Assembly (NCBI GenBank): GCA_025357175.1
Contig: JANXPS010000018.1
Location: 1 to 38,393 of the forward strand
From: Deltaproteobacteria bacterium
GTDB lineage: Bacteria > Desulfobacterota > Deferrimicrobia > Deferrimicrobiales > Deferrimicrobiaceae
Reading direction: 5' to 3'
DNA length: 38,393 nt
Shown here: one piece after another, positions 12,001 to 28,225 of the stretch
Numbering within the stretch: the stretch's first letter is position 1
Layout of the letters: every line of letters begins with the position of its first letter
Program-made: the position numbers and the translations under genes
Notes under the pieces: model-generated
The model's input: only the letters and a program-made list of their open reading frames with translations
The model's database searches: none
Told to the model about the DNA's origin: nothing

Positions 12001-14564
12001 TGACGCTCGGGGCGGGCAACGACATCGTCAACGTGCAGGGTACCGGCGCGACGGCCGCCACGAAGATCGACAGCGGCGCGGGCGACGACAAGATCTTCGT
12101 CTCCTCCGACGCCAACGTGGCCGCGCAGTGGGCGACGGACGGCTTCCTCGCGGGCGACACGTTCCGCTTCCTCGGCGGGACCGACGCACCGTCGCTCGCC
12201 TTCACGATGCCTTCCGGAGCGAAAGCGGCGCGCCTCGATATCCGCGACGCGAACGGCACGCTCGTCCGCACGATCGGCCTGGGCGACCTTGCCGCAGGCG
12301 ACTTCACGCAGAGCTGGGACGGCAGGGCCGACGACGGCCGCACCCTGGCTCCCGGCGCTTTCCGCTTCACGGTCACCGGGGAGGGCCTCGCCGGATCCGT
12401 CGTGACGGCCACCGGCACGATGGCCGGGACGCTCGACGGCCTCGCGTACGCCCTCGACGTCGAGGCGGGCGCGGGCAACAACACGCTCATGGTCAGCGAC
12501 GCCGGGTCACGGACGGGCGATACCGCAACGCTGGCCGCAGACCGCATCCTGGGGCTGTCGGACGGGGATATCACCTACGTGTCGACCGGCGGCGACTTCA
12601 ACGGCGGCATCACGGTCTGGAGCGGCTACGGCGCCGACAACATCACCGTGACCGGTTCCGCTTCCGATGTCGAAGGACGCACCGTCACGACGGTCAACAC
12701 CGGCCTGGGAGACGACCATGTTTCCGTGTCGCTCCACGCGGGCACGGACGGCTTCTTCGTCCTCAACACGCAAGGGGCGTACGACCACGACAATCTGAAT
12801 GCCGACATCACCGACAACGACACCGTCGATGCATCGGCCTCCACGCTGCCGCTGGTCATCTTCGGCGGCCAGGGCGACGACAACCTCACGGGCGGCAGCG
12901 GCAACGACATCATCTTCGGCGACCGCGGCCGGGTCGACTATCTCGACGCAGACGGCAACGTCGTCGCGACCCTCGGACGCGGCGGACTCGGCGACGCGAC
13001 GGACGGCCTGCAGCACACGGCGCTTTCCGCACACACGGTCGATCCGGCCGTCGGCGGCGACGATACGATCGATGCGCGCGAGGGCGACAACCTCGTCTTC
13101 GGCGGCGCCGCCAACGATCACATCACCTCCGGCACGGGCAACGACGTCCTGGCCGGCGACAGCGGCATCGCCACCATCGCGGCGTCCGGGGTGCTGTCCG
13201 GGGTCGCTTCGACCGACGCCGGAATCGGCGGAAACGATACGATCATCTCCGGCGACGGCAACGACGTCGTGATCGGCGGATTCGGCGGCGACACCCTCAC
13301 GGACGGAACCGGCCGCGGTTACCTGCTCGGCGACAACGGGACGGTCTCCTTCGATTCGACCGGCCGCGTGGCGATCGTCTCGACGTCGGACACCGTCGCG
13401 GAAACGGGCGGAGACGACACGATCACGACCGGCGACGGCGACAAATACGTCTTCGGGGGTGTCGGCGACGACACGATCACGACCGGCAGCGGCGACGACG
13501 TCCTCACCGGCGACAACGGTGTGCTCTCCTTCAAGAAGGACGGGACGCCGGGCCTCCTCAGGACCGTGTTGCCGTCGCTTGGCGGCGACGACACGATCCA
13601 CGCGGGCGAAGGCGACAACATCGTGATCGGCGGGATGGGGAGCGACACGCTCGACGCCGGTGCGGGTGACGACATCCTCATCGGTGACGGCGGCAGGGCC
13701 GAATGGACCGGGAGCCATTCAATCGTCGTCGAGTCGACCGATCCCTTCGTCGGGAAAGCCGATGTCCTGAACGGCCAGGGCGGGAACAACGTCCTGATCG
13801 GCGGGGCGGGGAGCGATCTCTTCTACGGCAACCTGTCCAAGGATCTGATGATCGGCGACAACGGCCGGGTGACGATTGAAAACGGGCAGGTGACGACCGT
13901 CGTCCTCATGGGTCAATATCCGCTCGACCTGATATCCTCGATCGAGTTCGGCCTCTACGGATCGCCCTGGGTCGGAGCGTCCGCCTCGGGCGGGGAAGAA
14001 AAGGCGGGGCAGGGGCTCGTGCTGCCCGAGACGATGAGGGGGGTCAGTCCCATCAACGACTTCCTGAAGACCGTGATCAACTTCTACGCACCCCGTCCGA
14101 CGGTCTGGACGGCGCCCGCGATGACGTTCCACGGCAGCGCCGCGGCAGCGCCCGCCCCGGCGACTCCGGCTCCCTCCGCCGACAGGGAGTCGGTCGAGAA
14201 ATCGATCCAGTCGCTCCTCGACTTCTTCGTCCCCGTCGCGCTGGCGGAGTCGGGGGATGAACGGATCGCCGCCTTGTGCGAAGATGGTTCGTCGACCGTC
14301 ATGACCGACGACGGCCTGATCGTGGACGCACGCCTCTCCGGCGGCGACGCCGGCGCGGCCAAGGCGCTGGCGAACGCCGCTCCGCCTTCCGCCCCGGCCA
14401 AGGAATCCGGCGAACCGGCGGCGCTCGAATCGCTGGTCGCGGGGGTTGCGGGCTGGAACGTCGCATCCAACGGCGCTTCCGACCGGAAGGTCAGGCTCGA
14501 CCGGGAGGCATTCGAGAATCTGGAACGGAAAACGCGCGAGCGCAAATTCCGCAAGTGGCACTAA
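1..14564 (+). CDS. Giant secreted mosaic repeat protein (RTX / Calx-beta-like / PPC-like adhesin-type), 5'-partial; >4848 aa in window
   Basis: Single uninterrupted frame from the window edge (no stop in codons 3-17 upstream of the listed GTG at 18) to TAA at 14562-14564. G/C-rich third positions. Readable domain content: beta-helix-like N-terminal part, many GGxGxD motifs, Calx-beta-like segments, C-terminal GGxGxDxUx nonapeptides. Confidence 0.9.
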   Translation, partial: LAVDHVSAGAEVRLKGKSGLTDGRAADSDVANVTGGDIILEGGSGGIGAPGAGNAFDVLLNGTTGLTARAANDVYITSEGDLRLMEIYSAGGTIDLRSKLSILDAYDEVTQATLAEKPFAKITGASAYLKAGDHIGTSGNAIETKLGTISATAENDIFLYEISTHAMSVGTVESTGGDVSLSADYGIEKKAGSTGANVIGDSIVLSNLMAGSIGVAGGSQDLVVKTRALTGAGVPTEDRGLSTHAFGNIYIQASGDLYLNAVSADNGGDAYISAPTGRIINGRLSGGANVTSGRTRLFANGDIGAAGNAITSEVSALEGLSIAGSFFLANSGDMTIGGITGAAKAIDAAGPVDISNACETWVEGDVESDGNVNITTDDDWQPGDEEARDEIIVRSGKTIRSTDLVHGSVTLRAGDGVKVEAGGTVASGHIVIGTVDGDGDGNVIELYGTLTAGDVLVEGGAHNDTIVITNTSSPTTVNAGGGDDTVHIGSHATPTTNTGGTTQRIAAGLTVNGGTGNDTVVVDDTGSNTARTLVLTDSTIDGISPATIHYSGLETLDIHLGNLGNTAKVRSTALDATTTITTGGGSDTIYVGSSDDGVSTVNGLAGRLILDGQVGTDTLRIDDMGDDSDNTGAMTRDSVTGLGTAGIDYTRLEAMTVDMGTGGDDFTISSVNAATSTFVNGNAGNDIVRVGTLLTDIGGPLYIQGGEGDDRLVVDNSSQTQGQEGTMLAETREGADPDTYLLSGFGLSPAGIDYRAFEKFALKLGTGDDKLYVATTIPGDNVIDLNDGNDVVNINEIDGSVVPTKTGSTTVFGGIGNDIFRVNYDGNGNQTFQNGIHGELSLHGGAGSDLYQIGLSGGGSSIINVTDLAPSNDLGINIMEVYGTNLPDYFLFRPNTIASVELGAERQPLPGGGIERINYDRSLNGGINVYGRDGDDTFVFDETSAPLTVYGDGGNDTFQVGQMFKSQRDAAAGLAPEDTFETIATTQGYLSNGASEPLTLYGGTGDDSFTVYHTGAELFLFGEAGDDTFRVHAFVKIDPNDLKKPFTNINGGQGSDFITYTVNAPVNIDGGDGFDTLTIVGSEFGDDFVITDKGIYGAGFPVRYTGLEKITVDGMQGNDTFFIESTPENVQLEIVGGLGSDTFNIGGSNGQPVTVVGKNMDGHSGLIDNDINAALSSADYANLFVPDVSAIIADADSAGVVIRPVDDTTTLLEGGTTLMTYAVVLARQPEEDVRVTATQSKPNESDAKAGGKGVLLNGCADGVTLLFSRDNWYVPQYVTVSAPADALAEGTKSYVIQHTAVQGADPNDGGAYDGVKVASLKTTVLDGDQAGVMVTQTNGGTAVAEGASDVNGTSRTDTYQVVLTQKPTGTVHIVLTNADGRLLLDGSPATASADDTVNRFELTFDETNWNVAQTVVVASAGPDGVVQGNAYSRITQRVDSNDLSAFYALSVDNVASNLSGKLAGEVTQDYATSYDPATRILSVTGSGFSASASFKYSAYADPSALEITDSAPSGSKWLEAGVTLSGTPEAGQSWSLVLNGKSYSYNVEEGDSLQYVEHVLSLQAGVRGYATSFDGTSISITAKDGSAFSASLKIDGVLTPGQIAVEGTRALGRVDIQLGDSAALGNVWTVTLNGKAYAFTAGGNRTAEEIAPLDVLVADADTPGVLVTQTGGNTQVIEPTDYSVIGSGAVTSAIDGSHFIADFGQSVLQETSSLHDTIDSAQDLDLGKWSLNANTEIQQAGEIPHITLQAAGDNTPDYYKFTVTQKMIADATDGKVSVILDVDHGYEDGDTVFWGSQITLFDAAGQVMTDTSRTVSPLDWTVNSDSNGHPISMGTGFSDPATAGAGGSSTYLDDYLAWDVTSAGTYTVKVDNWLSWYTYWQTGSTTGVPQGTDYDLQVSVENHGTNNFRFSPDPIFEAEPVNNVSQNIDATGNWSTFYDPKVGNTDYTGGLTGSSTPYVKIIGSGDGSKDVYQFTVTSDMLNPTSTDNVTGPTVAGSYYKSADLVFRGAGSVGDVWTLTLDGKDYSYTATTASLSEVVIGLEATLPTGTAGYGLSTGTTGETGDTLSISLANGFRIDGLKRVAADAGTTSRLETTGGTAFTHADIALGGTVSPGGRWTLTVGGNVYFRDIGATAVGQDVIAADIVSQITGDSGATFTASVDSVDDRLIHIDAKAGNTAGFTVAFMQSGSSAQLLSGTADISGTPVQSTASTVRWSTADLVLQGSAVQNETWRVTLGLIQINSAMVSSTDTLDDVGADLMGKINSDSRTKDDYVAAYSADSKTLEIKLKAGGSVKSFTAAIDILPGSRGTITAGSGVVTHGITLTGTPAAGQIWSLVADAGSAGKTTVTQVVDATHDTLGKIAESLAGKLVAANSDYRAVDDNGTVVASNVNNDAFTVTSTVNPLLSSADVSTSVRTVSLTGTVVTGEKWTVSFDINGTADSVEHLVADSATEMLADIAKDLSDKLVAKGCTSVSVGGTVIVEGLASGDTVTASTTSAGTVTADDSNASARTLDLAGTRTKDEVWTMSIMSGATVLGTASHTVGANGESLTTIALDLATQLSAGDYGAVSDSGRVTVAGLASGSAFTLTYTVDGVAGSATDSAATVHRFNIGGTAGTGETFSITEGTTTRTHVAADGQLPGAIATDFATKLTTGNYKAFASGGSVVIVRIDSGTYGASTSSVSKGGVDTVSTPKATAFTLEGTPASGQIWSASISGGGPSTSHPFATGDTVPKIATALASGLVGSGYVAYATGDTVTVCKIDGSSFTATFTLSPGGSAATVATSIIALGGTASIGETWSVSVDGGGPVASHIVAANGEAMSVIAADLVGQLNGTETDGYTAVYKNGKIVVSKVGAASLTITKPPVQSPPSAGSVLFKGTPKTTFSQSASLLDVDGVADGKCASDDQWTITVGGHTFTWPATVSGTPTDASVDLDTVAAGLAGLLNGSAYGYTATATNHSVSVSKADGSSLSVGDVSVSIKRAGTTPVTESDTRTHYSTAHVFLSSAADVVHSGDVWSIAVNGRTFRYTVPNVDPDHYVYSSDLNINLVAQGLADAINAANLSFSASNSSNEVTINDRDGVLTGPSQTITVDTRRGDGTVRSIFDIDSVTENVGFIVADGGVHYYIDRPTLTLLKDGNPTPLAYSNGSTLVDKGSQSTDDPFLDYKIASAGSYSVQVGTVRHYTDGFRPDAELGVVAPGISYQLDVSVPEHAYNHDILGLVGKQVRITGGTGMGESATITKYDAERKQFTIDSTWATLPDDTSIIEIGTASAIPPAVDTYSVVLSSAPQGDVVVDVVPQATRTYNSAKAFDPASNFGQSNIVQVKAATTQAMFHLSGTATDGLDWTVTLNSGSYTATGADLATVAANLADEINKDIRFTATVGEDGVTLFVTSDDRFYAGASLEAGLQGSVTVTPQLRFTAGNWGTPQSVEVQGLADHLVDGSDALVFPAFADRVNAIRGPVTIDGGIKINAERSLNDPFLLPGETNYPKADGSLSGFGFIDIDGVRYATLTDASATHVDPGVGIKDGFDPRMNGYPYAFTILSGPDKGAVYDVKQVLLDGDGNPTGTIVLDIAYDSVAAGSRPGSGDSYFYAPVNRNFLVTETDQVDTLNVFNGNSPSDDTGVLTGTHIGGLGMGGDTVIGGSPIQGGIDYRNIEALNIDLGSGNDTFTVESTHAGSTAINTGAGNDVVTVKTISGHTTISTGAGADVVNVGSDNGIVDQIAGLLAVNMGGNSGDKLAAVNTGDSGDNVATVTGTTITGLDMPTVGSVQSVYVQARTGSFALSAAGYGQIMVEYGTSASDVQAALNDLFGTADDVKVAESRDVRYGELWSVSYNVTFVDSLAGTAIPQLAWVEGQGGLTGYPDSSAYVRVSTAVDPQAPPQLPSVQTVTVHATEGTFRIGFALDPTDPSAITYTGDIKAGASGDDVLKALSAVLDPNNVHPDRPYTKNVAVRQFGDDYVITFQGAQRTLTISGIVNDTDGSVTCATRMNGINYYGVDTLDLTLGAGNDIVNVQGTGATAATKIDSGAGDDKIFVSSDANVAAQWATDGFLAGDTFRFLGGTDAPSLAFTMPSGAKAARLDIRDANGTLVRTIGLGDLAAGDFTQSWDGRADDGRTLAPGAFRFTVTGEGLAGSVVTATGTMAGTLDGLAYALDVEAGAGNNTLMVSDAGSRTGDTATLAADRILGLSDGDITYVSTGGDFNGGITVWSGYGADNITVTGSASDVEGRTVTTVNTGLGDDHVSVSLHAGTDGFFVLNTQGAYDHDNLNADITDNDTVDASASTLPLVIFGGQGDDNLTGGSGNDIIFGDRGRVDYLDADGNVVATLGRGGLGDATDGLQHTALSAHTVDPAVGGDDTIDAREGDNLVFGGAANDHITSGTGNDVLAGDSGIATIAASGVLSGVASTDAGIGGNDTIISGDGNDVVIGGFGGDTLTDGTGRGYLLGDNGTVSFDSTGRVAIVSTSDTVAETGGDDTITTGDGDKYVFGGVGDDTITTGSGDDVLTGDNGVLSFKKDGTPGLLRTVLPSLGGDDTIHAGEGDNIVIGGMGSDTLDAGAGDDILIGDGGRAEWTGSHSIVVESTDPFVGKADVLNGQGGNNVLIGGAGSDLFYGNLSKDLMIGDNGRVTIENGQVTTVVLMGQYPLDLISSIEFGLYGSPWVGASASGGEEKAGQGLVLPETMRGVSPINDFLKTVINFYAPRPTVWTAPAMTFHGSAAAAPAPATPAPSADRESVEKSIQSLLDFFVPVALAESGDERIAALCEDGSSTVMTDDGLIVDARLSGGDAGAAKALANAAPPSAPAKESGEPAALESLVAGVAGWNVASNGASDRKVRLDREAFENLERKTRERKFRKWH
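1431..3445 (+). repeat. About 19 dispersed calcium-binding-like G-G-x-G-x-D-T/D-hydrophobic repeats inside the giant CDS
   Basis: Read in translation: NAGGGDDTVHIGS, NGGTGNDTVVVDD, TGGGSDTIYVGS, QGGEGDDRLVVDN, YGDGGNDTFQVGQ, YGGTGDDSFTVYH, FGEAGDDTFRVHA, VGGLGSDTFNIGG and others, spaced about 30-60 aa apart. Confidence 0.6.
3579..4325 (+). other. Two consecutive Calx-beta-like domains in the giant CDS
   Basis: ADADSAGVVIRPVDDTTTLLEGGTTLMTYAVVLARQPEEDVRVTA...WYVPQYVTVSAPADALAEGTKSYVIQH, then DGDQAGVMVTQTNGGTAVAEG...YQVVLTQKPTGTVHIVLT...WNVAQTVVVASAGPDGVVQGNAYSRITQRV. Pattern recognition only. Confidence 0.45.
4560..10210 (+). repeat. Array of about 14 degenerate 88-114-aa modules centred on G-x-x-x-G-(E/Q/D)-x-W-(S/T)-hydrophobic, interrupted by PPC-like domains
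   Basis: Conserved Trp codons at 4602, 4884, 6048, 6351, 6693, 6999, 7287, 7572, (Phe at ~7860), 8127, 8391, 8718, 9045 and 10029. Each is followed about 20-30 aa later by an amphipathic L-x-x-I/V-A-x-x-L-A-x-x-L segment and then by a G-x-x-V-x-V...F-T strand pair. Confidence 0.6.
12201..12386 (+). other. FlgD Ig-like (FlgD_ig-type) domain embedded in the giant CDS
   Basis: FTMPSGAKAARLDIRDANGTLVRTIGLGDLAAGDFTQSWDGRADDGRTLAPGAFRFTVTG matches the characteristic 'v.I.D..G..Vr.l.lG....G...f.WDG.d..G......G.Y.f.v' pattern. Confidence 0.45.
12861..13875 (+). repeat. C-terminal RTX (hemolysin-type Ca-binding GGxGxDxUx) nonapeptide block with a higher-order ~60-aa period
   Basis: FGGQGDDNLTGGSGNDIIFGDRG; GGDDTIDAREGDNLVFGGAANDHITSGTGNDVLAGDSG; GGNDTIISGDGNDVVIGGFGGDTLTDG; GGDDTITTGDGDKYVFGGVGDDTITTGSGDDVLTGDNG; GGDDTIHAGEGDNIVIGGMGSDTLDAGAGDDILIGDGG; GQGGNNVLIGGAGSDLFYG. 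Confidence 0.85.
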
Positions 14565-14945: not shown

Positions 14946-15281
14946 ATGAGCAATCGTCCGAAGACCGAAGAGAACCAGACCGCCGAAACCCGTCCGAATC
15001 CCGCCGACGGCCCCCGGATCCAGTGGGACCAGTCGAAGATGAAGACCACCTACGCGAACGTGTGCAACGTCTCCAGCACGCGCGAGGAAGTCTCGATCAT
15101 GTTCGGAACCAACCAGTCGATCAACCTCGGGCAGGGAGAGATCACGATCGAACTGACCGACCGGATCATCCTCAACCCGTACGCCGCCAAGCGCCTCGCC
15201 CAGATCCTGGCGGGCATCGTCAAGCAGTACGAGGCCGCGTTCGGTCCCCTCCCGATCGAGGGCGAAGGTAAATCCCACTGA
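14946..15281 (+). CDS. DUF3467-like small protein (111 aa), paralog 2
   Basis: ATG at 14946 preceded by GAGGAG (~14931-14936). About 60% identical to the preceding gene over an ~83-aa core by my hand alignment (YANVCNVSSTREEVSIMFG...IELTDRIILNPYAAKRLAQILAGIVKQYEAAFGPL). Confidence 0.8.
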   Translation: MSNRPKTEENQTAETRPNPADGPRIQWDQSKMKTTYANVCNVSSTREEVSIMFGTNQSINLGQGEITIELTDRIILNPYAAKRLAQILAGIVKQYEAAFGPLPIEGEGKSH

Positions 15282-15319: not shown

Positions 15320-17140
15320 TTGTGGGAGCGATTCCGTGACGCGCAAGGCGACGATTATCTCCATTACTGGCTGGCGCTGCAGTCCGGCCTGATCGAAGGG
15401 GCGGTCCAGGGCCTTCTCGTGATGGGAACGCCCGGGGCCGGTCCCCCGGTCCCGGTCGCCCGCTGGCCGGAGAGCGGGGCCGATCCAGTCCGGCTGGCCG
15501 AGATCTGCGAGCGCGTCCTCGAAGAGCCCGGCGGTCTCCTCTGCACCTTGCCTGCGCGACCCTCCGAACCGTCGTCCGGAGGGTCGCAGCCGTTTGCGAT
15601 CGCCTATCCCGTCCTGGTGGGCGGCGAGTCGCACGGCGTCGTCGCGTTCGAGGTCGCCGCGATTTCCGAAGAGAATCTGGCTCCGGCCATGAACCAGCTC
15701 CAGTGGGGCGTCTCCTGGCTCGAGCTTTTCGTCCGCCGGCGCAATGCGCAGGACAACGATTCCGTACTCTCCGAAATGAGATCCTCCTTCGACCTTTTGG
15801 CGGCGGTCGTCGACGAGGAGCCCTCCAGCGCGTGGATGCGCTTCGTCACCGAGCTGGCCACGCGGATGCAGTGCGACCGTGCCAGCCTGGGGACTCTGAA
15901 AGGGCACCAGGTCACCGTCCGGGCGATTTCCCACAGCGCCCAGTTCGACCGGAACACGAACCTGGTCCGGCTGATCGGGCGTGCGATGGAAGAGTCGGTG
16001 CTGCAGCGGGACGAGGTGATCTTCCCCCCCCCCGAAGGCGGAAAGATTCTCGTAACCAAGGATCACGACGAGCTGTCCCGCGAACAGGGGGGCGAGGCGA
16101 TCCTGACGATCCCCGTCTACTCGGGCGGGCGGTATACGGGTGCATTGACGCTCGAGCGTCCCGCCTCAGTCCCGTTCGGGGAAACCGAGGTCGGCATCTG
16201 CCGCGGAATCGTCGCGCTGGTCTCCCCCATCCTCGAGCTCAAGCGGCAAAACGACCGCCCCCTGGCGTTCAAGGCCGCGGAATCTCTCCGGGAACAGGCG
16301 GTCCGCCTCTTCGGGCCCCGTTACCCAGGCCGCAAACTGGCGATCCTCCTCGCCTTCGGCGTCGCGTATTTCCTCGCCACGGCCACCGCCGATTACCGGA
16401 TCACCGCTACGGCGGTCCTCGAACCGCTGATCCGCCGCTCGGTCGTCTCCCCCTTCAACGGCTACGTCAAGGAGGCGTTCGTCCGGCCCGGAGACATCGT
16501 CCGGAAGGCGGCGCCGCTCTGCACGCTCGACGACCGCGATCTCCATCTCGAGCGCGCCAAGTGGCAAAACCAGAAGACCCAGTACGAGCGCCAGCAGCAG
16601 GAGGCGGCGGCCACGAACGACCGCGCGAAGGCCAAGATCATCGCCTCCCAGTTCGAACAGGCGGTCGCCCAGCTCGACATGGTCGACCGTCAGCTCAAGC
16701 GGACCAGCCTGGTGGCCCCCTTCGACGGAATCGTGGTCAGCGGCGACCTGAGCCAGCGGATCGACGGCGCCGTCGAGCAGGGCGAGGTGCTGTTCGAGGT
16801 CGCCCCCTTGAACGCCTACCGGGTCATCCTCCAGGTCGTCGAGTACAAGATCGGCGACGTGCATCCGGGCCAGACGGGGGAACTCGTCCTTCCGGCGCGC
16901 ACCGACCTCAAGTACCGCTTCACGGTCGAGAAGATCACCCCGATCGCCTCGCAGAAGGACGGCCAGAACTATTTCCGGGTCGAGGCCAAGCTCGAAGGTT
17001 CGGGCGTGGCCGACCAGACGCTGCGGCCGGGCATGGAAGGGGCCGGAAAGATCCAGGTCGGCCGCGGGAAGCTGCTGGCAATCCGCACGCGCGAACTGGT
17101 CGACTGGGTACGCCTCAAGGTCTGGGCCTGGCTGCCTTGA
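15320..17140 (+). CDS. HlyD-family periplasmic adaptor with a ~330-aa cytoplasmic tandem GAF-like N-terminal region and one TM segment
   Basis: First start after the in-frame TAA at 15269 is TTG at 15320; ATG at 15422 is an alternative. GAF-like segment: FVTELATRMQCDRASLGTLKGHQVTVRAISHSAQFD...LTIPVYSGGRYTGALTLER. TM: LAILLAFGVAYFLATATA. HlyD lipoyl/coiled-coil/barrel: GYVKEAFVRPGDIVRKAAPLCTLDDRDL...LVAPFDGIVVSGD. Confidence 0.8.
   Translation: MWERFRDAQGDDYLHYWLALQSGLIEGAVQGLLVMGTPGAGPPVPVARWPESGADPVRLAEICERVLEEPGGLLCTLPARPSEPSSGGSQPFAIAYPVLVGGESHGVVAFEVAAISEENLAPAMNQLQWGVSWLELFVRRRNAQDNDSVLSEMRSSFDLLAAVVDEEPSSAWMRFVTELATRMQCDRASLGTLKGHQVTVRAISHSAQFDRNTNLVRLIGRAMEESVLQRDEVIFPPPEGGKILVTKDHDELSREQGGEAILTIPVYSGGRYTGALTLERPASVPFGETEVGICRGIVALVSPILELKRQNDRPLAFKAAESLREQAVRLFGPRYPGRKLAILLAFGVAYFLATATADYRITATAVLEPLIRRSVVSPFNGYVKEAFVRPGDIVRKAAPLCTLDDRDLHLERAKWQNQKTQYERQQQEAAATNDRAKAKIIASQFEQAVAQLDMVDRQLKRTSLVAPFDGIVVSGDLSQRIDGAVEQGEVLFEVAPLNAYRVILQVVEYKIGDVHPGQTGELVLPARTDLKYRFTVEKITPIASQKDGQNYFRVEAKLEGSGVADQTLRPGMEGAGKIQVGRGKLLAIRTRELVDWVRLKVWAWLP
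16024..16033 (+). repeat. Poly-C tract of 10 nt inside the GAF-HlyD CDS
   Basis: Sequence reads ...gatcttCCCCCCCCCCgaagg... and encodes F-P-P-P-E. It is the longest homopolymer I found in the window. Confidence 0.95.
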
Positions 17141-19296
17141 GCGGCACGCGCGAACAATCCCTTTACAGCCCATCGTGGTACCGGATCGCCGGCCTGAAAC
17201 CGCGGCTGCGGGGGCACGTCCGGATCCACCGCCAGTACTTCCGCGAGCGGGAATGGTTCGTCCTGCAGGACCGTTCCACCGGCCGCTTCCACCGGATCTC
17301 CCCCGAGGCGTACTACCTCGTCGGCCTGATGGACGGCAACCGGACGATGACCGAGATCTGGGACGCCGCCTGCCTCCGGCTGGGCGACGCCGTGCCCACG
17401 CAGGACGAGGTGATTTCCCTGCTGTCGCAGATCCATCGCTTCGACGGCCTTCAATCCGACCTGCCGCCCGATATCGACGACCTGTCCGACCGTTCCGCGA
17501 AAGAGAAACGGTCGAAGCTCTTCGGCTACATCGCCTCCCCGACCTCCTTCAAGATTCCGCTGCTCGACCCCGACCGCTTTCTCGACCGCACCATCGGCCT
17601 GGTGCGCCCCTTCCTCGGTTGGGGCGGTTTCCTCGCCTGGCTCGCGGTGGTCGGGTACGGCCTCCTGCTCGCCGGCATCCACTGGCGCGAACTCACCTCG
17701 AACGTCACCGACCGGATGCTCAGCGTCGAAAACCTCGTCGTCCTGTCGCTCGTCTTCCCGATCGTGAAGACGCTCCACGAACTCGGCCACGCCTATGCCG
17801 TCAAGCGCGGCGGGGGCGAGGTGCACGAGATGGGGATCATGCTCCTGGTGTTCGTCCCCAACCCCTATGTCGACGCGACCGCCTCATACGCCTTCCGGAC
17901 CAAGTATCCGCGCATGTTCGTCGGCGCCGCCGGGATCATGGTCGAGCTGTTTCTCGCGGGCCTCGGCGCGATCGTGTGGACCAGCGTCGAGCCTGGCGCG
18001 CTGCGGGCGGTCGCCTTCAACACGATGGTGCTGTGCGGCGTATCGACGCTCGTGATGAACGGCAATCCGTTGATCCGCTACGACGCCTACTACATCCTTT
18101 CCGATTACCTCGAGATCCCGAACCTGGGGGCGCGCTCCACGGAATATCTCGGCTATTTCCTCCGCCGCCGGATTCTCGGGATCAAGGAGGCGACACCCAC
18201 GGCGAACGGCGCAAGAGAAGCGTTCATCCTCGCGTCCTACGGCGTCGCCTCGTTCATCTACCGGATCTTCGTCATGTCGGCGATCGCGATGGCGATCGCG
18301 GGCCGCTTCTTCGTGGTCGGGACGATCCTCGCGATCTGGGTGGTCGGCGGATTCGTCGCGATCCCCGCCTGGCGGGCGATCCGCACGATGGGCTCCGATT
18401 CCCTCATGCGCCGCTACCGCGTGCGGGTGGTCCTGGCGGCGACCGTTCTTGCGGGAGTCGTCCTGTTCGCCACCTTCGGTGTCCCCGTCCCCTCGTTCAC
18501 CGTGGTCGAGGGGGTGACCTGGGTCCCCGCGGAATCGCAGATCAACGCGACGGCGGACGGCATCGTCAACGCGCTCCTGGCCGCTCCGGAATCGGTCGTC
18601 CACCGGGGCGACCCGCTGATCCGGATCGAGGCGCTGAAGCTGGAAAAGGACGTCCGCGTCCTCGAGGGCTCGCTGCGCGAGGCCGAATCGCGCTACCAGG
18701 CCAGCCTCGTCTCCGACCGCACGGCGATGGGAATCTACCGGGACGACATGGAAAAGGCACGCCTTGAGCTGACGCGCTCCCGGGAAAAGCTCGGAGGGCT
18801 TCTCGTGCGCAGTCCGGCCGACGGGCTGCTGCTCATCCCGTCCGCGGCCGACCTCCCCGGCCGATACGTCAAGAAGGGCGAGGGGCTGGGCTACGTGGTC
18901 GACTTCCCGAGGGCGGTCGTCCGGATCGCCGTCGACCAGGACGACGTCGAGCGGATCCGCCGGAGGGTCACGAAAGTCGAGGGCCGGCTCGCCGGGGCGA
19001 TCGGAACCGTCATTCCCGCCACCGTCGTCCGCGAGGTGCCCACCGCATCCAACGATTTGCCGAGCCAGGCGCTCTCCGTCGCCGGCGGCGGTCTGATTGC
19101 CGTTTCTCCGGAGGGGGGCGGGCGGAAGCCGAAGTCGATCCGGCGATTCTTTACTTTCGACATCGCCCTGAAGGACGCCCCGATCCGGCGTGTGGGCGAA
19201 CGCGCGTTCATCCGCTTCACCCATCAACCCGAGACGCTGGGAGACCGCTGGATCCGGTCGCTCCGCCGGCTCCTGCTCAGCAAGTTCGACCTGTAG
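17137..19296 (+). CDS. Three-part fusion: PqqD/RRE-like N-domain, polytopic peptidase M50 (site-2-protease-type, HELGH) domain, C-terminal HlyD-type adaptor domain
   Basis: TTG at 17137 overlaps the upstream TGA (TTGA, 17137-17140). The upstream part of the listed 1197-aa ORF overlaps the previous gene. PqqD-like: FHRISPEAYYLVGLMDGNRTMTEIWDAACLRLGDAVPTQDEVISLLSQIHRFDGL. HELGH at 17776-17790, followed by VFVPNPYVDAT. Multiple TM helices. HlyD-like C-terminal part: RGDPLIRIEALKLEKDVRVLEGSLREAESRY...LLVRSPADGLLL. Confidence 0.8.
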   Translation: MSGTREQSLYSPSWYRIAGLKPRLRGHVRIHRQYFREREWFVLQDRSTGRFHRISPEAYYLVGLMDGNRTMTEIWDAACLRLGDAVPTQDEVISLLSQIHRFDGLQSDLPPDIDDLSDRSAKEKRSKLFGYIASPTSFKIPLLDPDRFLDRTIGLVRPFLGWGGFLAWLAVVGYGLLLAGIHWRELTSNVTDRMLSVENLVVLSLVFPIVKTLHELGHAYAVKRGGGEVHEMGIMLLVFVPNPYVDATASYAFRTKYPRMFVGAAGIMVELFLAGLGAIVWTSVEPGALRAVAFNTMVLCGVSTLVMNGNPLIRYDAYYILSDYLEIPNLGARSTEYLGYFLRRRILGIKEATPTANGAREAFILASYGVASFIYRIFVMSAIAMAIAGRFFVVGTILAIWVVGGFVAIPAWRAIRTMGSDSLMRRYRVRVVLAATVLAGVVLFATFGVPVPSFTVVEGVTWVPAESQINATADGIVNALLAAPESVVHRGDPLIRIEALKLEKDVRVLEGSLREAESRYQASLVSDRTAMGIYRDDMEKARLELTRSREKLGGLLVRSPADGLLLIPSAADLPGRYVKKGEGLGYVVDFPRAVVRIAVDQDDVERIRRRVTKVEGRLAGAIGTVIPATVVREVPTASNDLPSQALSVAGGGLIAVSPEGGGRKPKSIRRFFTFDIALKDAPIRRVGERAFIRFTHQPETLGDRWIRSLRRLLLSKFDL

Positions 19297-19309
19297 CGGC
19301 GGCCTTCCC

Positions 19310-21301
19310 ATGCTGCGCGACCTCCTCGACCATCCGCCGGCCACGCACGAGAATCGCTCCGAGCGTCCGGATCCGACGCCGGGCGCCCTCGAGTCGGCTT
19401 TCGACGCCGTCGGCGGGTTTGTCGGGCGGCTGATCCGCTCCCGCCTCCGCAGTCCGGATCGAATCATTTCCCTCGTGGCGTCGCACGCCGGTGAAATGAC
19501 CCGGATGAGCGACGATGGATTGCGCGCCGAGGCGGGCCGGCTCGGCGCCGAAATGCGGCGAAACGGCTTCCGCGACGACCTGGTCGGCCGCACGTTCGCG
19601 CTGATCCGCGAGACGGCGACGCGGACGGTCGGCAAGCGCCACTACGACGTCCAGCTCATGGGCGGGTGGGTGCTGCTTTCGGGTTCGGTCGCCGAGATGG
19701 AAACGGGCGAGGGGAAGACGCTGACGGCGACGCTGGCCGCCGGGACGGTCGCGCTCGCCGGCGTACCGGTCCACGTCCTCTCGGTCAACGACTACCTCAC
19801 CGCGCGCGACGCCGAGGAAATGGGGCCGGTCTACCGGGCGCTGGGTCTCCGCGTCGGATGCGTCGTCCACGACGTGGCGCTCGACAGGCGGCGCGAGCAA
19901 TACCTGTGCGACATCGTCTACTGCACGAACAAGGACGTGGTGTTCGACTACCTGCGCGACCGTCTGGTGCTCAAGGAGTTCGGCGGGATGCCGCTGCGCC
20001 TGCAGGCCGAGGCGCTCTACGAACAGGGGGCGCGGAGCCGTCGCCTCATGCTGCGCGGCCTGCATTACGCGATCACGGACGAGGCCGACTCCCTCCTGAT
20101 CGACGAGTCGCGAACGCCGCTGATCATCTCGGGCGCGGTGGTCGGCCGCGACGAGATCCGTTTCCTAGAGGATGTCCTCGACTTCGCCAGGGCGCTCGAA
20201 AACGGCACCGACTTCAAGCTCGACCTGAACAAGCGCATCGTCGTCGTGACCGCGGAGGGCGACCGCAAGATCGACGACTTTCCCCTGCCGACCGGGTCGC
20301 CCTGGATCAACAGCATCCGCAAGAACGAAATGGTCCGGCGCGCGGTCTCGGCGCTCTACCTGTTCGACCGCGACAAGGAATACCTGGTCCGCGACGGCAA
20401 GGTGCAGATCATCGACGTGTTCACCGGCCGCGTGATGCCAGACCGTTCGTGGGAGCAGGGGCTGCAGCAGCTCATCGAGATCAAGGAAGGGTGCGAGCCG
20501 AGCACCCAGCAGGATACCGTCGCCAAGATCAGCTACCAGACCTTCTTCCGGAAGTACCGCCACCTCTCGGGGATGACGGGCACCGCGAAGGAGGTCCGGG
20601 GAGAGCTGGGGACGGTCTACGGCCTGCCGGTGATCCGGATCCGGACCCACCGGGCGCTGCGGCGGCAGAAGCTTCCCACGCGCATCGTGGCGACGATCGC
20701 CGGGAAGGAGCAGTTGCTGCTTCAGCGGATCGGCGAGATCCACGCGACGGGGCGTCCCGTCCTCGTCGGCACCGGCTCGGTCGCCGCCTCCGAGCGGCTG
20801 AGCGCGTTTCTTGCCGGGGTGGGATTGCCGCACCGGGTCCTCAATGCGAAGAACGACCGGGAGGAGGCGGCCATCGTCGCCCGCGCGGGGGAAATGGGCT
20901 CGGTCACCATCGCCACCAGCATGGCCGGCCGCGGCACCGACATCAAGCTCGGCCCCGGCGTCGAGGCGCTCGGCGGCCTCCACGTCATCCTGACCGAACG
21001 CAACGAGGCCGCGCGGATCGACCGACAGCTGGCCGGCCGTTGCGCGCGCCAGGGAGACCCCGGCATCTACGAGGAGATCCTGTCGCTCGAGGATCCGCTG
21101 CTCGAAGGCGGAGCGGGGGCCGCGGCGTGGATCCTCCGGCGGATTCCCTCGGGGTCGCCCCTGTGGTCGTTCGTGGCCGGGTCGGCGATCGACCGGGCCC
21201 AGAAAAGGACGGAAAGCCACTACCGGCGGATGCGGCGCGACCTCTTCCGGCAGGATTCCCAGTCGAAAAACCGGATGTCATTTTCCGGCCGCGAGGAGTA
21301 A
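19310..21301 (+). CDS. SecA-like DEAD-motor ATPase, C-terminally truncated relative to canonical SecA (663 aa)
   Basis: ATG at 19310; the listed ORF start at 19190 overlaps the previous gene. SecA signatures: EMETGEGKTLTATL (GEGKT at 19706-19720), VHVLSVNDYLTARDAEEMG, IVYCTNKDVVFDYLRD, LHYAITDEADSLLIDESRTPLIISG (DEAD at 20078-20089), SGMTGTA, VLVGTGSVAASERLS, LNAKNDREEAAIVARAG, TIATSMAGRGTDIKLG, GGLHVILTERNEAARIDRQLAGRCARQGDPG. Confidence 0.9.
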   Translation: MLRDLLDHPPATHENRSERPDPTPGALESAFDAVGGFVGRLIRSRLRSPDRIISLVASHAGEMTRMSDDGLRAEAGRLGAEMRRNGFRDDLVGRTFALIRETATRTVGKRHYDVQLMGGWVLLSGSVAEMETGEGKTLTATLAAGTVALAGVPVHVLSVNDYLTARDAEEMGPVYRALGLRVGCVVHDVALDRRREQYLCDIVYCTNKDVVFDYLRDRLVLKEFGGMPLRLQAEALYEQGARSRRLMLRGLHYAITDEADSLLIDESRTPLIISGAVVGRDEIRFLEDVLDFARALENGTDFKLDLNKRIVVVTAEGDRKIDDFPLPTGSPWINSIRKNEMVRRAVSALYLFDRDKEYLVRDGKVQIIDVFTGRVMPDRSWEQGLQQLIEIKEGCEPSTQQDTVAKISYQTFFRKYRHLSGMTGTAKEVRGELGTVYGLPVIRIRTHRALRRQKLPTRIVATIAGKEQLLLQRIGEIHATGRPVLVGTGSVAASERLSAFLAGVGLPHRVLNAKNDREEAAIVARAGEMGSVTIATSMAGRGTDIKLGPGVEALGGLHVILTERNEAARIDRQLAGRCARQGDPGIYEEILSLEDPLLEGGAGAAAWILRRIPSGSPLWSFVAGSAIDRAQKRTESHYRRMRRDLFRQDSQSKNRMSFSGREE

Positions 21302-21311
21302 CCTCCTGAAT

Positions 21312-22064
21312 ATGATGAGAATGAAGCGCTTTCTAGCAGTCGTTTGCCTAGCCGGAATCCTGTCGCCCGTCCGGCCCATGGCCGCTCCGCGCGCGATTCC
21401 CGCCGAGGAATTCGACGCGATGATCTACCCCAACGAGACCGTCAAGCTGAGCAGCCAGATCGCCGGAATCCTCGAGGAGGTCTCCGTCGAAAGAGGGGAC
21501 GTCGTCAAGGCGGGACAGGTCGTGGCGCGTCTCAAGGCCGGCGTCGAAAAGGTCGAGGTCGCCCTCGCCGGCGCCAATGTCGACTACCAGAGGCGCAAGA
21601 TCGAACGGAACGCCGAGCTGGCCCGGAAGAAGCTGATTTCCGCGCAGGAGAACGACGACCTCGAGGGCGATCTCAAGAAGGGCGAGCTGATCCTCCAGGA
21701 GGCCGGGGAAAAGCTCAAGATGCGGACCATCCTCTCGACCGTCGACGGCGTCGTGACCGAACGGTTGCTGTCGCCCGGCGATTACGTGGGCGAGGCACCC
21801 ATCCTCAAGATCGCCAGCATCGATCCGCTCAAGGTCGAGGTCATCGTCTCGGCCCGCAAGTACGGATCGATCCGCAAGGGAATGCGCGCCGAGATCCGTC
21901 CCGAGGCGCCGGTCGGCGGCCTCTATTACGGGAAGGTCACGATCGTCGACAAGGTCATCGATCCGGCGAGCAGCACATTCGGCGTCCGGATCGAGTTGGC
22001 CAACCCCGGCTTCCGGCTGCCTTCGGGGCTGAAATGCCGCGTCCGGTTCCTCAAAGAGCCTTGA
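21312..22064 (+). CDS. Small periplasmic membrane-fusion (HlyD/RND-adaptor type) protein with signal peptide (250 aa)
   Basis: ATG at 21312 (ATGs at 21315 and 21321 are alternatives), with GAGGAG at 21293-21298. Signal peptide MMRMKRFLAVVCLAGILSPVRPMAA. Lipoyl-like GILEEVSVERGDVVKAGQVVARL, a short coiled coil, TILSTVDGVVTERLLSPGDYV and a beta-barrel segment. Confidence 0.8.
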   Translation: MMRMKRFLAVVCLAGILSPVRPMAAPRAIPAEEFDAMIYPNETVKLSSQIAGILEEVSVERGDVVKAGQVVARLKAGVEKVEVALAGANVDYQRRKIERNAELARKKLISAQENDDLEGDLKKGELILQEAGEKLKMRTILSTVDGVVTERLLSPGDYVGEAPILKIASIDPLKVEVIVSARKYGSIRKGMRAEIRPEAPVGGLYYGKVTIVDKVIDPASSTFGVRIELANPGFRLPSGLKCRVRFLKEP

Positions 22065-23170
22065 TCCCCGTCCGCCCCGACATATTCGACGTGACCGGCT
22101 CCCGCGAGGCGATCTCGATCGATTTCGGGACGGTTTCCGGCCTTGGTCCCGATCGGAACGGCGTGGCCGCCACGCTCGAGACGCGCGTCATCATGTCGCC
22201 GCTGATCGCCGCCCGCGTCGCCACGCTTCTCGAAAACAACATCCGCAAATACGAGGCCGCCTTCGGCGAACTGACGCAGGAAGTGCCGCCCCGGCCCGTG
22301 GGCCGGACCGAGTCCGACCTGCTGTTCGACCCGGTGCCCGGCCTGAGCATCGACGGAAGCGCCGACCGGGCCGCCTTCCTGTTCGAGTCGGTCGAGCGTC
22401 TCGGCATCCCCTACGCCTACGAACGGTCGTTCAAGCTGATGGCCGGCACGATCCTCCCGAACCGCTTCCTGTGCGGGGTCAAGAAGGGTTTCCTCGGGGA
22501 CGGATCCGACGGGATCCTGATCGAACTCTGCCGCAAGATCGGGATGCCGCCGCAGTTCCTCGAAACGTTCGCAAGCCGTGTCCAACACGCCGACTACGTC
22601 CATTTCGGCTTCGAAGAGGGCGTTTCCGGCTGCATCTACAAGGTCTACATCGAATTCGACGTCGGCCTGAAGCGGGAGCATGTCGACCTCCGCCACATGC
22701 CGGCGGAACCGTTCGAACTCCACATCGCGTTCAAGTGGTCTCCCGCGGACGAGTCGGTCCGCGCCGTTTCCCGGTACACCGGTTTTCCATTCATGACGAA
22801 GGAAACGATCGAAGGGCGGATCGCCGACATCTGCCGCGACGCGCCGGACGGCGAGTGCCTCGGACTGACGGGCCGCCTCCTCGACCGGGTTTACGGAAAG
22901 CTGCCGCTTCACGGTTTCTTCTACGTCGAGGTCCGGGAGGAGGGCAACCCGAGGGTTTCCTTCGACGTGAAGGTCTACGAGGCGGGAATCCCGATGCGGG
23001 AGATCTTCCCGATCGCCGACGGCTACCGCAGGCACTTCGCCATTCCCGACGACCGCTTCCTCCCGCTGTACGAGCGGATCGGCGATTCGACGTTCGGGCA
23101 CGTCACGGGGGGGATCGACCGGAGCGGGAACGAGTTCCTGACGCTCTATTTCGGAGTCGAGTGGCGCTGA
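22061..23170 (+). CDS. DUF3467-like N-terminal module (~75 aa) fused to an unrecognised ~290-aa domain
   Basis: TTG at 22061 overlaps the upstream TGA (TTGA, 22061-22064); GTG at 22091 is an alternative. N-terminal IFDVTGSREAISIDFGT...LETRVIMSPLIAARVATLLENNIRKYEAAFGEL aligns with the two small paralogs. The listed ORF start at 21344 overlaps the previous gene in another frame. Confidence 0.75.
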   Translation: MIPVRPDIFDVTGSREAISIDFGTVSGLGPDRNGVAATLETRVIMSPLIAARVATLLENNIRKYEAAFGELTQEVPPRPVGRTESDLLFDPVPGLSIDGSADRAAFLFESVERLGIPYAYERSFKLMAGTILPNRFLCGVKKGFLGDGSDGILIELCRKIGMPPQFLETFASRVQHADYVHFGFEEGVSGCIYKVYIEFDVGLKREHVDLRHMPAEPFELHIAFKWSPADESVRAVSRYTGFPFMTKETIEGRIADICRDAPDGECLGLTGRLLDRVYGKLPLHGFFYVEVREEGNPRVSFDVKVYEAGIPMREIFPIADGYRRHFAIPDDRFLPLYERIGDSTFGHVTGGIDRSGNEFLTLYFGVEWR

Positions 23171-26100: not shown

Positions 26101-26772
26101 GTCGCCCGCGAGGTGCGTGACGCGGAACGTCCCGGTGGCCTTGAGGCCGTCGGGGTCCAGGCGGACCTTCGCCGTCAGCCGTTCCCAAAGCGACGACGCG
26201 CAGGCGATTTCAATGTCGAGCCTGCCGGGGGGCGCATCGATGCGAGCGGAGAGGCCGGTCGCGTCATACAGGACGATGCCGTCCCGCAGGAGCGTCAGTC
26301 GTCCGCGCGACAGTTCGATCACCGCACCCGGAATGGCGTCCGAAAGGGCGGTCAGCAGCTTCGCGCTCTTCTCGCGGAGCTCCCGGAGCGTCAGCGGTTT
26401 TTTGTGCGCATTGTCCGTGGACGGAAGGGTGATCCGGAAATCGGGCGCGTCGGCCTGCACTTCCGCAAGCCGGAATTCCTTTCGGAAGAGGGAGATGATC
26501 GTGGGGGATATCTTCAGCGTCTCGACCGTCCCGTCGGCGATTCCCGGGATCAGCACTTTTGCCCGGTGCAGCACGACCCGGGGGCGCGGAAAGAAAGCGA
26601 GTTCGATCCGTTCGCACGAGAGGCGCGCGCCGAACGCGCGGGAGGCGGTTTCCATGATGCGGACGCGGACCGCGTCCAGGTTGATCCACCGGGGCGCGAA
26701 AAGGAGCCCCCCGAAGAGCGCGAGGAGGGTCAGTAGAATTGCGGCCGCCGTCCGTAAACCGATTCGTCGCAT
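23146..26772 (-). CDS. AsmA-family / YhdP-like large envelope protein (1208 aa)
   Basis: N-terminal anchor MRRIGLRTAAAILLTLLALFGGLLFAPRW plus an AsmA-type start (RLSCERIELAFFPRPRVVLHRAKV). AsmA-like C-terminal region: DGFAYNSLKIKGELANGRIKVPHLVLDAASANIAAEGEVDISRKTVDAVLVASPFKTVDSIIRLIPIVRYILKGRLVAVPFKVSGPLGDPGVS. GGAGAGG Shine-Dalgarno on the minus strand (plus 26781-26787). Confidence 0.85.
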   Translation of the reverse strand: MRRIGLRTAAAILLTLLALFGGLLFAPRWINLDAVRVRIMETASRAFGARLSCERIELAFFPRPRVVLHRAKVLIPGIADGTVETLKISPTIISLFRKEFRLAEVQADAPDFRITLPSTDNAHKKPLTLRELREKSAKLLTALSDAIPGAVIELSRGRLTLLRDGIVLYDATGLSARIDAPPGRLDIEIACASSLWERLTAKVRLDPDGLKATGTFRVTHLAGDKLAPFLPPHPALVLSGAFPDAEADFECADFRTLRADFKGSVPAISVRRSARRIDARDIRFSGAIRLDEKALALNALRLSASAPRLDASGDFHLDFPTSRATASLHAGNVNIGAARETLLSFAGDLDPLPDIFDWLRGGTIPSLDISSQGRFPSGLATLAAMRLRASLRDALIHVGPGNLDLEAVRGDVSLDGGALKARGISASLGNSRTSDASVAVSFARKGTPFRVEAPLHADLSQLPGVMARLPLPAEAAALFADISSLEGSATGRLTLEGDDSGVRTAVAASSIRLAGRHRRVPLPFTVSDGFFALSGDTIRLTGHSGTLGRTKFSAVSGRMKVGGDYPVDNVSGRVEADPGEISAWVATSPWAASATGGITASGGTLDLSVSRLEGALLRPQSLRFEGTGTMHELRLSGGKLPGPLTLHSGKVTAAADSLAFEALRGSLLDAELAGSGAWTGIRGERHAVEASGLGGILGPESVRRLMALGKLPPAFSPRAPVTLSGVRLMLADDNTAALSGSFSVTDGPVVTLDLSGRPGALEIRSASLRDADSDATGSLSHTPGGLTLRFAGHLAASSVSRLFPGREPGNEWIAGDIRLRIPRDNVVRIHAKGTLEARSLHFPELLGPLTVSRLSLEAAGVRLTVGPADLAWDGKPFTLKGTLVNGTDGITADLDVHASTFSWEEIEHELARYGPAPGTSARPWRLPVTGTVRVTADAFTWKTFAWKPFRADVGLAPQAVSVVVNESKLCGIETSGAIRVTPEGTSVDLKATAADQPVEASLACMGEKDFRMTGTYTLSAHVTGVGRGDALVSSLHGPLSFEARKGRIHKANVLMKVLALLNVTQILVGKVPDLAEDGFAYNSLKIKGELANGRIKVPHLVLDAASANIAAEGEVDISRKTVDAVLVASPFKTVDSIIRLIPIVRYILKGRLVAVPFKVSGPLGDPGVSIIPTAGVGSGLLGILERTLKLPVHLIEPLLPDQRHSTPK

Positions 26773-26796
26773 CTTCGATTCCTCTCCGATGCCCCG

Positions 26797-26802
26797 ATTA
26801 TA
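26797..26802 (-). promoter_or_regulatory. Candidate -10 box (perfect TATAAT on the minus strand) upstream of the AsmA-like gene
   Basis: Plus-strand attata at 26797-26802 reads TATAAT on the minus strand, about 25 nt upstream of the ATG at 26772 and just upstream of the SD. I could not identify a convincing -35. Confidence 0.25.
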
Positions 26803-26929
26803 ATACCGACCTGCCGGAACCGGCCCTCGAAACCGTCCAGGAACAGCTTTCGGGATCGTTGCAAACCCGCGTTCGCGTCACCCCCGTTTCCCTTGGCGAC
26901 GCGGAGATCATCGAAGTCGGTGCGCCGGT

Positions 26930-28207: not shown

Positions 28208-28225
28208 GGACCGGTGCCCGATCCG

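Follow-up and report, generated by a model that had tools for sequence, protein, structure and literature searches.

The window analysed here is a 38,393-nucleotide stretch of a Deltaproteobacteria bacterium of the Deferrimicrobiaceae (GenBank assembly GCA_025357175.1, contig JANXPS010000018.1, positions 1 to 38,393 of the forward strand). At 17137–19296 (+) it carries a single open reading frame (ORF) encoding a 719-aa protein that joins three parts on one chain: a domain resembling PqqD and the recognition elements (RRE) of peptides that are ribosomally synthesised and then modified after translation (RiPPs), a core resembling the M50 intramembrane metalloproteases, and a HlyD-type periplasmic adaptor. 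We put the chances at about even that this fusion protein is the inner-membrane recognition and processing subunit of a type-1-like export machine that works without an ATP-binding cassette (ABC) transporter and serves giant surface proteins. In such a machine, the RRE-like domain would dock a short leader on the cargo, most likely the LEPR-XLL segment, and the M50 site would cut the leader off at the cytoplasmic face. A SecA-like motor would provide the ATP-driven push, as the ABC transporter does in classical type 1 secretion, and three HlyD-type proteins would jointly form a duct across the periplasm, leading to a TolC-like channel of the outer membrane whose gene lies elsewhere. A coupling of leader cleavage to export was suggested in an original prediction made from the DNA letters, and this proposal is strengthened here because the N-terminal domain and M50 core are homologous to RiPP leader peptidases.

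The fusion gene and its three-part product

The stretch 17137–19296 (+) is a genuine gene encoding one three-part polypeptide. Its GC content at third codon positions (0.89) was similar to that of adjacent genes, and more than 5,700 database proteins matched the full-length query, the best 120 of which covered ~91–100% of it. The TTG at 17137 is the sole in-frame start codon across ~240 nt and overlaps the stop codon TGA of the preceding gene (TTGA), which suggests translational coupling of the two genes. A start far downstream, which would leave the N-terminal domain untranslated, is not indicated, as there is no nearer alternative start and homologue alignments began at residues 7–9, with conserved residues from position 9 (SLYSPSWYR); these alignments indicate that the domain is translated. 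The division into PqqD/RRE-like, M50 and HlyD parts that was originally proposed was borne out by NCBIfam, by Pfam across relatives, by AlphaFold2 (AF2) modelling, by Foldseek and by profile searches. Profile support for this protein taken alone was uneven, in that NF041824 (E = 2.5e-44) and HlyD_3 were clearly matched, HlyD_3 above its cut-off, whereas Pfam M50 and PqqD fell below theirs.

The strongest of these matches links the first two parts of the protein to enzymes of RiPP biosynthesis. Residues 22–418 aligned with positions 1–372 of the 379-position NCBIfam model of the daptide intramembrane metalloprotease (NF041824), and the model of the YydH/LiaK epipeptide protease (NF058609) was matched with E = 1.9e-7. 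The NF041824 score of 152 bits lies far under the equivalog cut-off of 300, which indicates that the fusion protein is not a daptide protease although it is homologous along the whole model. Judged by these alignments, the N-terminal domain and M50 core share homology with RiPP leader peptidases over their entire length, and the two matches together indicate that the RRE–M50 module is found again in enzymes whose annotated role is RiPP maturation or leader removal.

The PqqD/RRE-like winged-helix domain occupies aa 28–101 (17218–17439, +) and is predicted to be cytoplasmic; the N-terminal peptide on which the original prediction drew corresponds to aa 59–105. Pfam PqqD was matched in 30 of 58 full-length relatives (E ≤ 0.01; best E = 6e-6). 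Both AF2 models agreed on strands at 28–35, 38–45 and 50–54 followed by helices at 56–63, 71–85 and 89–101, and this modelled beta3–alpha3 order is the RRE winged-helix topology. When the poorer of the two models (aa 1–452) was searched with Foldseek, the best meaningful matches of this domain were all genuine RREs, namely TbiB1 (5v1v), the lasso-peptide protein B1 (6jx3), CteB and ThcOx, with target-normalised TM-scores of 0.66–0.70 against TbiB1 and B1 and probabilities of 0.72–1.00 over the four, at E-values of only 0.4–3.7. The matched TbiB1 and B1 structures are complexes with leader peptides. A profile of the domain built from 43 relatives ranked two PqqD structures, 3g2b and 5sxy, at the top of 177,635 PDB sequences, the match to 3g2b (E = 0.017) spanning the whole domain.

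Conservation was assessed over 77 full-length relatives from Desulfobacterota, Alpha-, Beta- and Gammaproteobacteria, Nitrospira, Omnitrophota, Rokubacteria, Myxococcota and Flavobacteriales. Mean column conservation was 0.67–0.69 in the RRE domain, compared to 0.51–0.54 in transmembrane (TM) helices 5–7 and the adaptor. The beta-hairpin and NPxxxxD regions of the M50 core were likewise conserved above TM5–7 and the adaptor, and the hairpin was the most conserved segment of the protein.

The full AF2 model, built on the 58 relatives (mean predicted local distance difference test score, pLDDT, 79), placed seven TM helices between the N-terminal domain and the adaptor. These are TM1 at aa 162–181 (17620–17679, +), running from inside to outside; TM2 at aa 197–224 (17725–17808, +); TM3 and TM4 at aa 256–308 (17902–18060, +); and TM5–TM7 at aa 361–448 (18217–18480, +), the last of which enters the periplasm. 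Inter-helix loops of the predicted inside contained 4, 7 and 3 Lys plus Arg residues, and those of the outside 2, 0 and 1, satisfying the positive-inside rule. In the predicted topology, the N-terminus would lie in the cytoplasm, the HExxH and NxxPxxxxD motifs would face it, and the adaptor would follow TM7 in the periplasm.

The M50 motifs were intact in this framework. Pfam Peptidase_M50 was matched in 54 of the 58 relatives (E ≤ 0.01; best E = 9e-8). The HELGH motif lies at 17776–17790, as originally stated, and corresponds to aa 214–218; H214, E215 and H218 were invariant in both the 58- and 77-relative sets. It falls inside the predicted helix 197–224, at the cytoplasmic end of TM2, and is predicted not to be displaced from the membrane/cytoplasm interface. 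Site-2 proteases have a membrane-reentrant beta-hairpin directly after the HExxH helix, and here a predicted beta-hairpin at aa 229–247, within the segment aa 225–250 (17809–17886, +; GGEVHEMG...PNPYVD), follows TM2. The M50 signature NxxPxxxxDG supplies an Asp as third zinc ligand. A motif of identical spacing, N308-G-N-P311-L-I-R-Y-D316 (18058–18084, +), stands directly after TM4, followed by Ala rather than Gly, and N308, N310, P311, L312, R314, D316, Y318 and Y319 were invariant. This spacing makes D316 the probable third zinc ligand, rather than the Asp of PNPYVD (aa 241–246; 17857–17874) proposed earlier; that candidate was dropped given its position in the hairpin after the HExxH helix and the invariant NxxPxxxxD elsewhere. 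The hairpin also holds an invariant additional His, H230 of GGEVHEMG (aa 227–230; 17815–17826), which adjoins the active site.

The periplasmic adaptor of the HlyD/membrane fusion protein (MFP) type makes up aa 449–719 (18481–19293, +) and comprises a lipoyl domain, an alpha-hairpin (aa 500–553) and a beta-barrel. Pfam HlyD_3 was matched at E = 1e-7 (33 bits; cut-off 22.2) and in 55 of the 58 relatives. Foldseek aligned this part with MexA, MacA, EmrA and AcrA at E of about 1e-11, and PDB profile matches were MacA (1e-6), EmrA and a HlyD-type MFP. The periplasmic barrel contains a conserved LPSxALSxxGGG loop (aa 641–662; 19057–19122) with an invariant GGG and a pLDDT below 50.

A four-gene cassette beside giant genes

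The fusion protein is one of thousands in a large family that has already been described in silico. A search with aa 1–418 against 1.84 billion cluster representatives returned 10,413 matches with E ≤ 1e-3, of which 3,312 reached E ≤ 1e-30; nearly all of the 150 best were ~715 aa long, the length of the full fusion. Relatives are encoded in at least 595 species-representative genomes, the closest named one being from Geomonas paludis (56% identity). Database names are inconsistent and include 'putative peptide zinc metalloprotease protein', 'HlyD family efflux transporter periplasmic adaptor subunit' and 'peptidase M50'.

In the window, the gene is the second of four that run from 15320 to 22064 in the order GAF-HlyD, M50-HlyD, SecA-like and small HlyD, and this order recurred in nearly all of 84 related loci. 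The first gene (15320–17140, +) encodes a 606-aa protein with a ~335-aa cytoplasmic region that includes a GAF domain, a single TM segment (aa 339–359) and a periplasmic adaptor domain. The third (19310–21301, +) encodes a 663-aa SecA-like ATPase that comprises a SecA_DEAD, a preprotein-binding and a P-loop domain and retains both the Walker A (GEGKT) and the DEAD motif; the domain scan detected no SecA scaffold/wing domain in it. The fourth (21312–22064, +) encodes a 250-aa adaptor of the HlyD/resistance-nodulation-division type with an N-terminal hydrophobic segment, so that, together with GAF-HlyD and the fusion protein, the cassette contains three different adaptor-type proteins. Two apparent gene fusions of GAF-HlyD with M50-HlyD were considered as evidence for a complex and rejected; one (P0235, 1,181 aa) appears to stem from a frameshift in the gene call, and the other, a long ORF at 7919–12643 of locus L054, is a spurious high-GC frame.

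Giant genes commonly adjoin the cassette and no ABC transporter was found with it. Within ~10 kb, an ORF combining LSGGQ with Walker A was found in 0 of the 50 loci that have at least 8 kb of flank, and no ABC-transporter domain was present among the window genes scanned. In the same set, 36 of 50 loci contained an ORF that was 1,500 aa or longer, and in all four contigs that were looked up annotated giants of 5,340, 5,365, 9,463 and 17,800 aa lay directly upstream. The window itself holds the 3' part of a giant gene for a repeats-in-toxin (RTX)-type protein (3–14564, +; at least 4,853 aa). Although the ORF listing gives a GTG start at 18, there is no stop back to the left edge, which indicates that the gene is truncated by the window. 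Its product is rich in Gly, Thr, Ala and Asp, with a FlgD-Ig domain at aa about 4046–4122 and RTX nonapeptide repeats near the C-terminus, and is the probable cargo. Searches for the N-terminus with the window fragment gave only short, distant matches among proteins and nothing in a metagenome scan.

Two genes of the DUF3467 type flank the cassette in the window. One encodes a stand-alone 111-aa protein (14946–15281, +), and the other (22061–23170, +; start codon uncertain) carries a ~290-aa C-terminal extension without a family match, a fusion that recurs in relatives, for example in loci L002 and L003, in the latter beside a radical S-adenosylmethionine (SAM) gene. A DUF3467 gene was adjacent in about half of loci and absent from many (e.g. 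L001, L016 and L027). A role as a SecB-like chaperone was considered and found no support, as DUF3467 had no PDB match by sequence or profile and 31 members had no match to the SecB Pfam family; hhalign against E. coli SecB gave an insignificant probability of 0.5%, although it paired IILNPYAAKRL with ILFPYARECI, which is a lead at most. Farther downstream, 23146–29512 (−) encodes a YhdP/AsmA-like protein of 1,208 aa, a diguanylate cyclase of the Tll0287-GGDEF type and a beta-propeller protein resembling TolB; beyond that region lie genes for a PAS histidine kinase that also carries a receiver domain, a major facilitator superfamily transporter, a chemoreceptor and a multihaem cytochrome. This gene content fits a host among Geobacter-like Desulfobacterota.

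Candidate substrate signals and alternative roles

The original prediction had named the DUF3467 proteins among possible substrates of the N-terminal domain. DUF3467 is a well-conserved ~90-aa domain (51% mean identity), and this conserved, folded character together with its absence from many loci makes it an unlikely substrate. The LEPR-XLL leader of the adjacent giants is a better candidate, judged from the N-termini of these proteins. Eight cassette-adjacent ORFs with a visible N-terminus and a LEPR motif all scored above the cut-off of NF012209 (LEPR-XLL, 'LEPR-8K'), and the eight included all genuine ORFs of 1,500 aa or more among the LEPR-matching ORFs whose N-terminus was visible. Each begins with a basic stretch followed by F-E-x-L-E-P-R-x-L-L-S-A; the loci (L036, L038, L041, L047, L055, L064, L069 and L084) come from Nitrospira, Omnitrophota, Burkholderiales, Gammaproteobacteria and Desulfofustis.

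A reciprocal scan of metagenome contigs with the pattern EPR[LI]L[LF]SAD recovered 80 loci (L085–L164), in which the LEPR ORF usually filled the whole 10-kb flank (at least 3,300 aa). Cassette genes lay directly upstream in ~25 of the 80, and in 8–9 of the 26 with at least 5 kb of upstream sequence; a DUF3467 gene often immediately preceded the LEPR gene. The motif was ~25–65 residues from the start, with the consensus RRRxMRFExLEPRLLLSADL. Positions outside the search pattern were also conserved, namely Glu at −3 (99%), Phe at −4 (70%) and Arg-Arg at −9/−8 (65–70%).

A different signal could serve the same machine, with the RRE-like domain and M50 site acting on the giant's C-terminal module, and this version of events we regard as unlikely. 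The ~50-aa module ends the window giant at 14415–14561 (+; LVAGVAGW ... RLDREAFENLER ... RKFRKWH, also given as PAALESLVAGVAGW...RKFRKWH) as well as the giants of 11 other cassette loci (L001–L004, L007, L013, L016–L018, L032 and L075), the 12 sharing AGxxGW, phi-DRxx-phi-xxL and RRFxKW. A hidden Markov model of the 12 modules found four more cassette-adjacent ORF ends, in upstream ORFs of L006, L008, L033 and L062, two of them clear (E = 9e-11 and 5e-10) and two weaker (1e-4 and 0.003); no other ORF among 10,940 scored better than E = 0.1, and the module had no NCBIfam match. RTX repeats stand just upstream of it, as in type 1 substrates, and a handle of this kind would resemble type 1 C-terminal signals or the sorting signals of exosortase and rhombosortase systems. 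However, the module was detectable in only ~16 of 84 loci, with unrelated tails elsewhere, and its hydrophobic stretch is not long enough to serve as a membrane anchor; it was not found in the LEPR-XLL loci, since C-termini there mostly lie beyond the loci. The RRE domain, in contrast, is strongly conserved family-wide. We favour LEPR-XLL over the module because it is conserved across the same phyla as the RRE domain, while the module occurs only in a subset.

It is also conceivable, if quite unlikely, that the M50-like core is not a protease but an inner-membrane pore or scaffold that replaces the missing ABC membrane domain. The lack of ABC-signature ORFs around the cassette would be accounted for in this way, and seven TM helices per chain are fused to an adaptor of a kind that normally oligomerises. 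Against this, HExxH, NxxPxxxxD and the hairpin were invariant in the 77 diverse relatives and were the most conserved parts, an invariance that is hard to account for without catalysis. Moreover, no site-2-protease fold is known to conduct polypeptides. The two roles are not mutually exclusive, and that of a pore was proposed before for this family (PMC4452313).

Regulated intramembrane proteolysis of the GAF-HlyD partner or another membrane protein, for signalling or for dismantling the machine, appears improbable. GAF-HlyD is a single-pass protein with its N-terminus in and C-terminus out, type II as are typical site-2-protease substrates, and its GAF domain suggests sensing. However, the cassette conserves neither a sigma or anti-sigma factor nor a DNA-binding domain, the presence of an RRE-like domain suggests that a soluble peptide is recognised, and a purely regulatory role leaves the adaptor fusion unexplained. 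Least probable of all is that a small RiPP- or bacteriocin-type peptide, for example a DUF3467 protein or the product of an unannotated short ORF nearby, is matured and exported with the giant as a mere neighbour: the nearest named families are RiPP proteases, a DUF3467 gene adjoins in about half of loci and one relative's locus has the radical SAM gene beside a DUF3467 fusion, but DUF3467 is not a leader–core peptide, no modification enzyme is conserved in the cassette, and a SecA-like motor with three adaptors would be excessive for such a product.

Several observations weigh against the proposed processing and export of LEPR-XLL giants. For this protein alone, neither Pfam gathering cut-off was reached, whether by the isolated N-terminal domain for PqqD (PF05402; E = 0.03, 15.2 bits, cut-off 23.4) or by the core for Peptidase_M50 (PF02163; E = 0.0017, 18.2 bits, cut-off 27.2). 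No solved site-2 protease appeared among the top 50 of 428 Foldseek matches of the full model, these 50 all being adaptor proteins, in the PDB profile search, or in the fold search with the aa 1–452 model (16 sequences, pLDDT 60), whose TM region is too poorly modelled (38–60). A TolC-docking RLS motif was not evident at the hairpin tip of the adaptor, and the window ORFs that were scanned included no recognisable TolC-like gene. About 28% of loci had no giant gene within 10 kb, and many LEPR-XLL genes had no cassette in the visible flank. The N-terminus of the window giant lies outside the window, and a LEPR-XLL leader is attributed to it from other loci. Finally, the LEPR-XLL segment is not a TM helix, whereas site-2 proteases classically cut TM helices.

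On this balance, the role of the fusion protein as recognition and processing subunit remains our preferred reading, and we hold more tentatively to a fuller scheme, a distinct pathway in which LEPR-XLL-marked cargo would be captured by the RRE-like domain, cleaved by the M50 site and threaded from N- to C-terminus by the SecA-like motor through a hetero-oligomeric HlyD ring to the outer-membrane channel; this is possible, but less likely than not to hold in full. Outside ABC-driven type 1 systems, the export of bacterial proteins as long as 5,000 to >17,000 residues is largely unexplained, and the cassette occurs in hundreds of species whose lineages include Desulfobacterota, Proteobacteria, Nitrospira and Omnitrophota. 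If true, the proposal would give the LEPR-XLL domain a function, carry the RiPP recognition element beyond the biosynthesis of small peptides into protein secretion and add a new class of secretion system. The intact M50 site, the shared docking domain and the LEPR-XLL leaders of the neighbours make the hypothesis concrete and testable, and cultivable hosts with close relatives include Geomonas paludis, Neptuniibacter caesariensis, Marinobacterium mangrovicola and strains of Methylobacterium, Bradyrhizobium and Pseudomonas. Even if the hypothesis is wrong, the fusion protein stands as a member, now correctly annotated, of a large family with inconsistent database names.

Comparison with known systems

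The cassette was described by Kamneva, Poudel and Ward in 2015 (PLoS One, PMC4452313) as a locus coding for GAF-HlyD, a HlyD protein with weak resemblance to Peptidase_M50, a secondary SecA_DEAD protein and a protein of the HlyD/biotin-lipoyl type. It has the same four genes in the same order, in Proteobacteria, Nitrospirae and the Planctomycetes-Verrucomicrobia-Chlamydiae (PVC) group, and the fusion gene belongs to its 'peptidase' cluster. A type-1-like system was proposed there, with SecA_DEAD replacing the ABC ATPase and the M50 membrane domain possibly forming the pore. A text search of the paper gave no mention of PqqD, DUF3467 or giant proteins, and in the part that was read none was found of RiPP-peptidase homology, LEPR-XLL leaders or invariant catalytic motifs. 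Relative to what was read and searched there, the homology with RiPP peptidases, the adjacency of giants without an ABC signature and the LEPR-XLL leaders are new. Literature searches on DUF3467, on SecA_DEAD with M50, on PqqD with M50 and HlyD, on giants with SecA, and on site-2 proteases with membrane fusion proteins returned only this paper and a preprint on Omnitrophota as relevant, those on daptides were uninformative, and no experimental follow-up of the cassette was found in the literature searched.

The Omnitrophota preprint described a SecA motor without scaffold/wing inside giant proteins and proposed that it acts as an exporter (West-Roberts et al. 2023, bioRxiv 10.1101/2023.11.21.568195); a text search of it found no M50, HlyD, GAF or DUF3467. 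In those giants SecA forms a domain within the giant chain itself, whereas here the motor has a gene of its own in the cassette. In an Omnitrophota locus of our own set (L038), GAF-HlyD, M50-HlyD, small HlyD and DUF3467 genes stand beside a LEPR-XLL giant gene. In Chlorobium chlorochromatii, a horizontally acquired secA (Cag_1676) was reported to be co-expressed with giant symbiosis genes in work on the Chlorochromatium consortium (bioRxiv 10.64898/2026.03.19.712371), and Chlorobi are among the carriers of the secondary SecA_DEAD cassette in PMC4452313.

Among named families of intramembrane proteases, those of the daptide and YydH/EpeP/LiaK type are the closest in sequence and share with the fusion protein both the RRE-like N-terminal domain and the whole M50 core. 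The NF041824 model, at 379 positions, stops before the adaptor begins, and these proteases are not known to carry a HlyD adaptor. They are known from small-peptide clusters with modifying enzymes, not from sites near giants and a SecA-like ATPase. For one of them, EpeP, a review describes both cleavage and export of its peptide as work of the M50 protease (PMC10885120). The site-2 proteases RseP, SpoIVFB and MjS2P (MEROPS M50) resemble the fusion protein in their TM HExxH motif followed by a beta-hairpin, the NxxPxxxxD motif after a later TM helix and active-site motifs that are predicted here to lie near the cytoplasmic face; sequence similarity to them is weak, and in place of PDZ or CBS domains the fusion protein carries the RRE-like domain and the adaptor.

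A functional analogue of the proposed process is found in the peptidase-containing ABC transporters of the CvaB/CvaA type, where an N-terminal leader is recognised and cut cytoplasmically as the substrate enters a tripartite duct. In these systems a C39 cysteine peptidase is fused to the ABC transporter, whereas the fusion protein joins an M50 metalloprotease to an adaptor and has no ABC signature nearby. With the classical type 1 systems LapA/LapBCE and HlyA/HlyBD-TolC (PMC8277102), the cassette has in common a giant Gly/Asp-rich probable cargo with C-terminal RTX repeats, HlyD-type adaptors and, presumably, an outer-membrane channel encoded elsewhere; it differs from them in its three different adaptor-type proteins, its SecA-like ATPase, the inner-membrane position of its protease and the lack of an ABC-transporter signature.

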